The notes below the pieces were generated by a model. The model was not told the DNA's origin. It did not search any database and saw nothing but the letters and a program-made list of their open reading frames with translations. A stretch of 64,000 nucleotides of DNA from Iphione sp. A-MEVVRFRX5 (lineage: Eukaryota), in the NCBI GenBank assembly GCA_976226885.1, contig OZ320313.1:51026001-51090000 (forward strand), in the 5' to 3' direction. This document shows, one piece after another, positions 39,124-40,626 of the stretch; position 1 is the first letter of the stretch; each line of letters starts with the position of its first letter. Made by a program: the position numbers and the translations under genes.

Positions 39124-40626
39124 TTAGTAGCTATGCTCGTCGCACGCCCCAAGGCCACTCATACACGCATCAGCACATATGGTCTTACTCACGTGGTTGT
39201 CAGGTATTATTTCAACACCGTTCCACTGGGGAAGAAAACATAAGAACCACCTGATGTCCTTTCTTGCTTCCGCACTCAACTTCAGGTGGTGCCCTGTGGA
39301 TGCTCGAAGGAGGGCCAGGAGCCTACTGACAAAGAGACGCCCAGGCCTGACACATCGGGAGATATACAGGAGCCTACCGAGGATACTTTGTAGCTGCTTG
39401 CGGGTTATGGACCGACAGGATGAGACAGTCTCCAATTCGTGGCATATGGCCTGCACCTTCTGCAATGGGATAGAAATGAGCATATTGTAGGCATCAATCT
39501 GCACCCCAAGCCATACAACAGATGGAGCCGGGTCCTGGGTCTTGTGCACGGCCTCAGGGAGGCCAAGGGACCGAAATAGGGCCCGCGTTACCTGAAAGGT
39601 CCTCCATGCTTCTTCGGGTCCTCTGGCGGCCACTATCAAGTCATCCAAGTACATCGCTGCGTGGACTTCGTGCCTAGCCAGCATCCTTACAATCGCGTCG
39701 GCAACCCGCTGCATATGATTGGAAGAGCAGCGGGCGCCGAACGGGATGCTGGTATCCATATAATACTTGTCCTGCCAACGGAATAGTAACAATGGCCAAT
39801 CACTTGGACAAGTAGGGAAATTTTTGTAGGCGCGTGCTATATCCATAGTGAATAAATATACATCATCATTGAGCGACCTAATCCGGGCCAAGAGAGACTC
39901 CAATGTAGGGAGCGAATGGTCCCTGGTAACACCCAGGACCATATTCTTAGGGATGTAGGCGTTGATGGAACTTGCCTGCGGAAACGACATATCGGTGATA
40001 ATACGTCGCTCCTGACTGTCACTCTTCGGCCTTGACATCAGGGGAGAAGAATGACACCATTGATCAAACGGAGGGACTATGAAAGGACCACACAGTGCGC
40101 CTAACCTCATTTCATTCTCAATATATTGATTGACAGAGTCAGGATACTGTACCGCCGACGGGTGATTTGGAACATGGCATGTATCAGATGTTGGTCCGAG
40201 GTAACCTATAGGGAAACCGTATGTTATTAAGTCGATGAGTTGTGCATCACAGTCATCTTGTGCAAGATACCAAGCCCAGGCCTGCAAGTTGAGGGCTGAT
40301 GGAACCTGGTAGCGTGCGGCCAGCAAGTTAGGGTAGCCGGTGTCCCGTACTACGCTATATATTTTTTCTTTCTCAGAGTCCAGGACATTACTCACAGGTA
40401 AAGGCCAATGTGTTCGTCGATAATGGGCCATGGAATGCACATCACAATACGTGGCAATGTCATCATTTTGATCATCAGCACAACATTTAGCAATAGCTTG
40501 GAAATCAATGGTATGTGAGTCAAAGTTCTTATCAACATTGCAGGAGGGCTTGCTTACCTCCTTGCTGACTGGTGGCCCCTCCTCCTCAGTGGTCTTGAGC
40601 CCGCCAGTCAATTCTGGTCGTTTTTT
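39124..40626 (-). CDS. Reverse transcriptase (plus start of RNase H) of the Ngaro element; no ATG at the ORF start, probably reached by -1 frameshift
   Basis: RRIITDMS, DIARAYKNFP, PFGARCS, YLDDLIV, WLGVQID and LQSILGRL motifs, then ICADAC. The ORF-track start at 40611 is TTG. Confidence 0.92.
   Translation of the reverse strand, partial: KKRPELTGGLKTTEEEGPPVSKEVSKPSCNVDKNFDSHTIDFQAIAKCCADDQNDDIATYCDVHSMAHYRRTHWPLPVSNVLDSEKEKIYSVVRDTGYPNLLAARYQVPSALNLQAWAWYLAQDDCDAQLIDLITYGFPIGYLGPTSDTCHVPNHPSAVQYPDSVNQYIENEMRLGALCGPFIVPPFDQWCHSSPLMSRPKSDSQERRIITDMSFPQASSINAYIPKNMVLGVTRDHSLPTLESLLARIRSLNDDVYLFTMDIARAYKNFPTCPSDWPLLLFRWQDKYYMDTSIPFGARCSSNHMQRVADAIVRMLARHEVHAAMYLDDLIVAARGPEEAWRTFQVTRALFRSLGLPEAVHKTQDPAPSVVWLGVQIDAYNMLISIPLQKVQAICHELETVSSCRSITRKQLQSILGRLLYISRCVRPGRLFVSRLLALLRASTGHHLKLSAEARKDIRWFLCFLPQWNGVEIIPDNHVSKTICADACMSGLGACDEHSY

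Follow-up and report, generated by a model that had tools for sequence, protein, structure and literature searches.

Ngaro retrotransposons, tyrosine-recombinase elements of the order DIRS, are defined, in the passages of PMC8547959 and PMC3783388 that were available, by the layout A1-[gag, RT/RH, YR]-B1A2B2, in which reverse transcriptase/RNase H and tyrosine-recombinase genes follow gag, and according to part of PMC3266345 they usually lack ORF overlaps. Little has been documented about how a single transcript of a tyrosine-recombinase retrotransposon serves to express three genes. The published statement that we found on recombinase expression is a guess of frameshifting: Poulter and Butler 2015, in a quotation within the available part of PMC13003380, propose that YR is expressed 'probably' by frameshifting in the RT/RH-YR overlap. 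Neither a gag/pol slippery site nor a spliced recombinase is described for Ngaro in the portions covered of PMC3783388, PMC6681497, PMC8547959, PMC3266345, PMC7192593 and PMC13003380, or in those of PMC9341512, PMC9210276, PMC4157794, PMC5009743 and bioRxiv 2022.06.16.496473, although Goodwin and Poulter 2004, Poulter and Goodwin 2005, Poulter and Butler 2015 or supplements may mention them. DIRS and Ngaro go unmentioned in the covered portion of PMC5009743, a review of frameshifting; according to the same portion, 28 of 51 animal LTR retroelements have their pol in -1, and A_AAA_AAC is one of the sites at which mammalian ribosomes shift most readily.

The family described here differs from Ngaro as published in these portions in having a gag/pol frameshift signal, and in carrying splice signals for YR in place of the frameshift proposed in the quoted passage of Poulter and Butler 2015. 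Its signal resembles the -1 cassettes of retroviruses and Ty3-Gypsy elements, with an X XXY YYZ heptamer, a short spacer, a 3' structure and pol in the -1 frame. Unlike those elements, the one studied here has no protease or DDE integrase, its stimulator looks like a plain hairpin, and its cassette would lie inside an intron. Retroviral env is made by a single splice that removes gag-pol, while frameshifted pol is translated from genomic RNA. The arrangement proposed below is similar, with genomic RNA for the frameshifted pol and a spliced RNA for the third gene, but here the third gene is an integration enzyme that would keep ~210 Gag residues. A spliced subgenomic RNA is also known from the Ty1/Copia element EVD of Arabidopsis, in which, according to the part of PMC5580714 covered, a conserved donor close to the end of gag gives rise to a Gag-only message and also binds U1. 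In Copia, as presented in that part, splicing replaces frameshifting in setting the Gag:Pol ratio, and integrase is not spliced onto Gag.

A Ngaro element and its relatives in one genome

The window, by which we mean the whole 64,000-nucleotide stretch of Iphione sp. DNA that was analysed, contains an element with the following parts.

41917..42042, minus strand: A1 repeat, the element's 5' end (126 nt; identity with A2, 98%)
40608..41882, minus strand: gag ORF, ATG to TGA, 424 aa (from position and conservation)
38677..40626, minus strand: pol (RT/RNase H), from heptamer to stop (RVT_1, E=1.9e-13)
37660..38627, minus strand: tyrosine-recombinase (YR) exon (Phage_integrase, E=2.2e-6)
37529..37638, minus strand: B1 repeat (110 nt, 100% identical to B2)
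37407..37532, minus strand: A2 repeat (from comparison with A1)
37254..37363, minus strand: B2 repeat, the element's 3' end (from comparison with B1)

The three genes follow one another in the order gag, RT/RH, YR on one strand, and the split direct repeats have the order A1-ORFs-B1A2B2, a layout that is also found in most relatives in the same genome. By repeat layout, gene order and domain content, the element is a Ngaro. RVT_1 and Phage_integrase are the only Pfam matches on it, with no methyltransferase, protease or DDE integrase, and it has no hydrolase ORF, unlike the Ngaro superfamily comparison. Catalytic-type R, HxxR, W and Y residues are all present in the YR exon. Gag is without any Pfam match and is named from its position and conservation; its N-terminal half is of low complexity, and its C-terminal half is conserved and includes Cys/His residues.

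An in-frame TAA at 39126-39124 (minus strand), at the start of RNase H, suggests that the window copy is defective for Pol. Full Pol is thus probably beyond its reach, though gag, YR and all repeats are intact. The end of RNase H is reached by the open frame from the heptamer in 76 of the 98 heptamer-bearing loci described below, and the pol end adjoins the YR acceptor: of 66 long open frames, 65 stop 605-655 aa past the heptamer.

A search of the genome with the RT listed at least 140 matches. We analysed 6 kb around 120 of the 139 matches other than the window, which was then added to give 121 loci; the 120 were hand-picked for long open RT frames, with some duplicates omitted, and blind to the gag/pol junction. 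All relatives compared belong to one genome and share ancestry. Their RT is 49-76% identical to that of the window, and DNA identity to the nearest neighbour is mostly 64-75% across the 121 loci. Searching the 1.18-Gb genome at the DNA level gave no second near-identical copy of the window element. Most lineages are single-copy, yet their A and B repeats are 95-100% identical, which marks many recent insertions from many different lineages. Extra copies of the A and B repeats, either tandem or duplicated ends, occur beside three loci (L116, L077 and L110), and another (L071, G000:C2:92957729-92963729) keeps all four repeats around an internal deletion that takes out the YR match.

Among Gag homologues sought in the 5.8-billion set, 0 of 1733 candidates passed, so that the comparison of frameshift sites covers one genome. 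A YR search of the same set gave two distant matches, a metagenome scan gave five short YR loci, none of which extends to the gag/pol junction, and no relatives were found among viral contigs.

The slippery heptamer and the predicted hairpin behind it

The gag/pol overlap includes the following features.

40620..40626, minus strand: slippery heptamer A AAA AAC in gag phase, present in 98 of 109 relatives with pol in -1
40611..40619, minus strand: 9-nt spacer, its first two bases (GA) conserved
40566..40610, minus strand: predicted stimulatory hairpin, -20.1 kcal/mol, opening on the gag stop codon (from folding; kept across relatives)
40540..40565, minus strand: second predicted hairpin, directly downstream, which holds D2 (from folding)
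40552..40560, minus strand: donor-like motif D2, GAG/GTAAGC (GT at 40557-40556), 50 nt past the gag stop and in pol phase 0

A preliminary description of this DNA had placed A AAA AAC at 40626-40620 within gag, followed by a 9-nt spacer (40619-40611) and a stem in which TGACTGG (40610-40604) pairs with CCAGTCA (40572-40566). All of these coordinates are exact, and the gag phase is confirmed by the codons across the heptamer, GCA AAA AAC (A40626-C40620). The frame that a -1 slip would enter is, as had been proposed, that of RT: the gag frame (41987-40608) and the pol frame (40731-39124) overlap for 121 nt before the gag stop, with pol in -1 and open from 40731. The TGACTGG arm itself starts with the gag stop TGA.

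Four of the 121 loci have no gag match. In the remaining 117, pol lies in the -1 frame in 109, in frame 0 in 4 and in +1 in 4. A AAA AAC stands in gag phase before the gag stop in 98 of the 109 loci with pol in -1, and in 72 of these 98 it is exactly 10 nt ahead of the stop. As a control, 251,860 nt from other parts of these elements contain AAAAAAC 11 times and never in gag phase; the contrast between 98/109 and 0/11 indicates that the heptamer is not there by chance. Its flanks are also conserved, with C before it in 95 of 98 loci, followed after it by G (96/98) and A (98/98). Nineteen gag-bearing loci fail the strict heptamer test, and 18 of them keep a damaged or out-of-register A-run at this place; in four of these 18 a C-to-T change creates a stop in the pol frame. 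Runs of seven A are found in three loci.

Codons at other conserved gag positions are mixed (Lys, 43 AAA and 32 AAG; Asn, 54 AAC and 25 AAT; Gly codons, 25/23/16/7), which implies that there has been time enough for silent sites to diverge among the lineages. The heptamer, its phase, the spacer and the downstream hairpin are nevertheless kept across ~100 lineages despite freely varying synonymous sites. Intact relatives thus do not lack these elements, a possibility that the preliminary description had raised against its own proposal; the heptamer is retained at the frequency given above, and a hairpin follows it.

When 40619-40540 is folded, as that description had suggested, its stem closes the minimum-energy fold (z -2.26; 5 of 200 shuffles as good). 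The stem is also the closing helix in a fold of 40615-40560 (z -2.63; 2 of 200), and is kept in 40619-40500 at a z of only -0.67, but it drops out when 40 upstream bases are added (z -0.02). The predicted hairpin of the window thus appears only moderately stable against shuffles.

For the relatives, hairpins were compared in 91 loci after removal of 7 near-duplicates. Folds of 50 nt that begin 6 nt past the heptamer have a mean energy of -15.3 kcal/mol and a z of -1.66; the z is -1.18 for those that begin directly past it, and ranges from -0.18 to +0.48 over nine other offsets. In 66 of the 91 loci (6, 19 and 22 at control sites) the earliest confident 5-bp helix starts 4-11 nt past the heptamer, most commonly at 7-8 nt; 25 loci have no such helix at this distance. 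Energy is below that of the control window in 84 of 91. Stem sequences vary, and cannot be aligned from one subfamily to another. The window differs from its nearest relative (L079) by one two-sided stem change. In a 21-member subfamily that can be aligned, 84% of cells are paired (27-43% when the alignment is slid), with 36 of 500 shuffles as good; no two-sided change occurs in this subfamily's stem, and covariation is therefore not shown there. An H-type pseudoknot was rejected as a family feature, since loop-to-downstream pairing amounts to 3.74 bp against 3.71 bp in shuffled sequences (n=87). A search of Rfam returned a single match (E=0.97), which we take as chance.

Candidate splice signals associated with the recombinase

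The YR frame has no fixed relation to pol, being the same in 38, +1 in 35 and -1 in 43 of 116 loci, and an X XXY YYZ heptamer is present in 0 of 106 intact RH/YR junctions. Unrelated frames with no slippery site between them suggest that the recombinase is likely a spliced fusion to the N-terminal half of Gag, and candidate signals for such an intron are found in the window.

41244..41250, minus strand: predicted splice donor D1 in gag, AG/GTAAT, phase 1 in the gag frame (exon end 41249)
38658..38664, minus strand: branch-point-like TACTGAC (from sequence)
38628..38645, minus strand: predicted CAG acceptor with its pyrimidine tract, in YR phase 1 (exon start 38627)

A scan for donors gives a single sharp peak ~630 nt ahead of the heptamer, in gag phase 1, and AG/GTAA is present at D1 in 113 of 116 anchored loci (an unselected count). 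Of the AGs close to the YR start, the best one falls in phase 1 at 107 of 116 loci, compared with 325 of all 673 nearby AGs. This best AG is preceded by a T-rich tract, with C at -3 in 98 of 107 loci and TRAY at -32..-7 in 61 of 107 (22 in a control window). D1 and the acceptor occur together in 104 loci, 2448-3958 nt apart. The predicted intron of the window (41248-38628, 2621 nt) contains the frameshift cassette, and its removal would join 634 and 968 nt into an open frame of 533 aa. Splice-site scores came from simple weights; the donor, pyrimidine tract, YAG and matching phase of a GT-AG intron are all present. We therefore regard splicing from D1 to the acceptor as a highly probable source of the recombinase, judging from these sequence features.

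The best-surviving alternative accepts a Gag-Pol fusion by -1 slippage, and attributes YR expression to a second frameshift, to readthrough or to reinitiation at the RH/YR junction, with the splice-like motifs as by-products of coding. Of 106 loci, 40 do have a YR that overlaps RH in -1, and an in-frame ATG lies near the YR start in 57 of 107, the window among them. The three-way split in frame relation argues against a second frameshift, as do the absence of overlap in 38 of 106 loci and of slippery heptamers in all 106. Nor does coding readily account for the motifs: wherever the C-terminal half of Gag is open (80 of 80 loci), the Gly codon at D1 is GGT and the preceding codon ends in A (CGA 37, AAA 24, AGA 16, 3 others), a restriction to A-ending Arg/Lys codons, and the pyrimidine tract often occupies sequence that does not code for YR, with a YR-frame stop at most 33 codons upstream of the acceptor in 94 of 107. 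We consider this alternative improbable, and prefer the splice from D1.

Two further observations were made on possible splice signals. The RNase H stop often lies 9-25 nt ahead of the acceptor and can double as a branch-point-like motif (L068-L187). A strong phase-1 donor-like site at 40822-40813 of the window (minus strand), in the gag Cys/His region and 190 nt before the heptamer, has counterparts in a minority of relatives and could yield a longer Gag-YR form.

Counting from the first base of the heptamer, 64 of 91 loci have a motif of the D2 type at a distance of 25-105 nt, compared with a mean of 13 (maximum 21) in shuffles, 6 on the reverse strand and 4-19 in twelve other windows. These motifs are always at or past the gag stop, by 0-81 nt, and are in phase 0 in 47 cases, phase 1 in 47 and phase 2 once (phase 2 would usually make a pol stop). 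In one subfamily D2 forms the 3' arm of the hairpin, and is kept even where this breaks pairs (in 9, 7 and 14 of 21 members at three pairs). Some of this enrichment may follow from the stem and from common descent. A frameshift-dependent Gag-YR fusion spliced from D2 to the acceptor was considered and dropped, because phase 0 is as frequent as phase 1 and is the phase in the window. The donor of EVD near the gag end (PMC5580714, in part) is a possible model for D2, and by this analogy D2 would likeliest give a Gag-only message or bind U1.

Gene models from other animals have related layouts. A profile search with the YR alignment was considered for its best 150 proteins; among these listed matches, most are stand-alone YR frames or RT/RH-YR models, and several NCBI models consist of an N-terminal low-complexity region and YR with no RT. 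The fusions seen in amphioxus and hemichordates are computed gene models. XP_078682739.1 (Branchiostoma hybrid, 503 aa; computed) joins about Gag 1-173 directly to the YR of the same element: it matches residues 1-174 (98%) and 1037-1366 (99%) of KAI8490524.1, with nothing between. The skipped part includes RT/RH and a region like the C-terminal half of Gag (E=1.6e-4, probability 50%), and alignment of that half places the junction within about six residues of D1. The model is repeated at three further loci, and XP_019631222.1 has the same junction. Amphioxus RefSeq models, as computed, thus have a Gag-N-half/YR layout. Two Ptychodera isoforms (also computed) join different upstream points to one YR start. 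A profile of the Gag N-terminal half of the relatives has no match to the N-termini of the amphioxus and hemichordate fusions.

Entry into pol and a proposed expression scheme

The preliminary description had noted that the pol frame lacks an ATG until far inside the ORF. In one sense this is correct, as 100 codons of open frame precede the first ATG (40431), which lies 65 codons past the heptamer, but that ATG is only 2 codons before the start of the RT query. It might be supposed that pol is translated alone, either because ribosomes reinitiate at an ATG past the gag stop or from an RNA spliced to an acceptor before RT, and that the heptamer is kept for another reason. The position of this ATG near the RT start would suit such a route, as would the presence of some pol-frame ATG between the heptamer and the RT query start in 66 of 95 loci. 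The other 29 have none, and the ATGs are scattered, with the window's own ATG common to only 23 of 85 relatives, the largest share of any column. A pol-frame Phe (40503) and Cys (40482), both upstream of ATG 40431, are invariant in 85 of 85 aligned linkers, and in 95 of 98 loci no stop interrupts the pol frame between the heptamer and RT. As for an acceptor in front of RT, this candidate was rejected: no acceptor column is shared in the 85 linkers, the gag stop TAG itself excepted, and the best linker acceptors fall in phases 35/34/22. Independent translation of pol is accordingly very improbable. Transcriptional slippage, in which the polymerase and not the ribosome changes frame on the A run, would suit a homopolymeric site and the seven A found in three loci, but such runs are usually longer than the six A here, and the fixed codon phase, the C at the end and a hairpin at ribosomal spacing leave it a very slight chance.

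A conserved heptamer and hairpin, with no shared ATG or acceptor into pol, thus argue for production of a Gag-Pol fusion by -1 frameshifting, as had been proposed for this element, and we hold this with high confidence on the comparative sequence data. The cassette is a textbook device in a class of elements for which we found no description of it, and the added result is that expression of the recombinase likely proceeds by splicing.

Both steps can be combined in one scheme. Most ribosomes would halt at the gag stop and release Gag (424 aa). A minority would pause at the hairpin with the codons of Lys420 and Asn421 in the P and A sites, slip back by one base and read pol from unspliced RNA to yield Gag-RT/RNase H, which would be 1068 aa in an uninterrupted frame of this length and would stop at 919 aa in the window copy. 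Removal of 2.6 kb between the gag donor and the YR acceptor would give a fusion of the Gag N-terminal half to the recombinase (533 aa), and this shared half of Gag may target the recombinase to the particle. We consider it likely that a frameshift to Gag-RT/RNase H and a splice to the Gag-N-half recombinase jointly explain expression of the element. A fuller version, which we offer tentatively and at somewhat less than even chances, has a branch of animal Ngaro elements make three messages from one promoter, the first encoding Gag and Gag-RT/RH, the second a Gag-tethered YR, and the third Gag only, through D2 in or beside the hairpin, such that splicing would be coupled to frameshifting.

For both steps the window family provides exact coordinates that can be tested, and ~100 natural variants of the hairpin follow a single heptamer. 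If the scheme is true, annotations of a Ngaro 'YR ORF' omit the first 200 residues of the real protein, and these residues would matter for any attempt to express a recombinase.

A dispersed, short and internally repetitive element at 35526-36256 and 47316-47923 flanks the Ngaro insertion on both sides. The fragment at 26259-26921 (minus strand) resembles, by eye, a LINE-type reverse transcriptase. The GC-rich block (53-57%) at 52000-58000 of the window is possibly another mobile element; it includes several open frames, 170-360 aa long and low in complexity, most of them on the plus strand.
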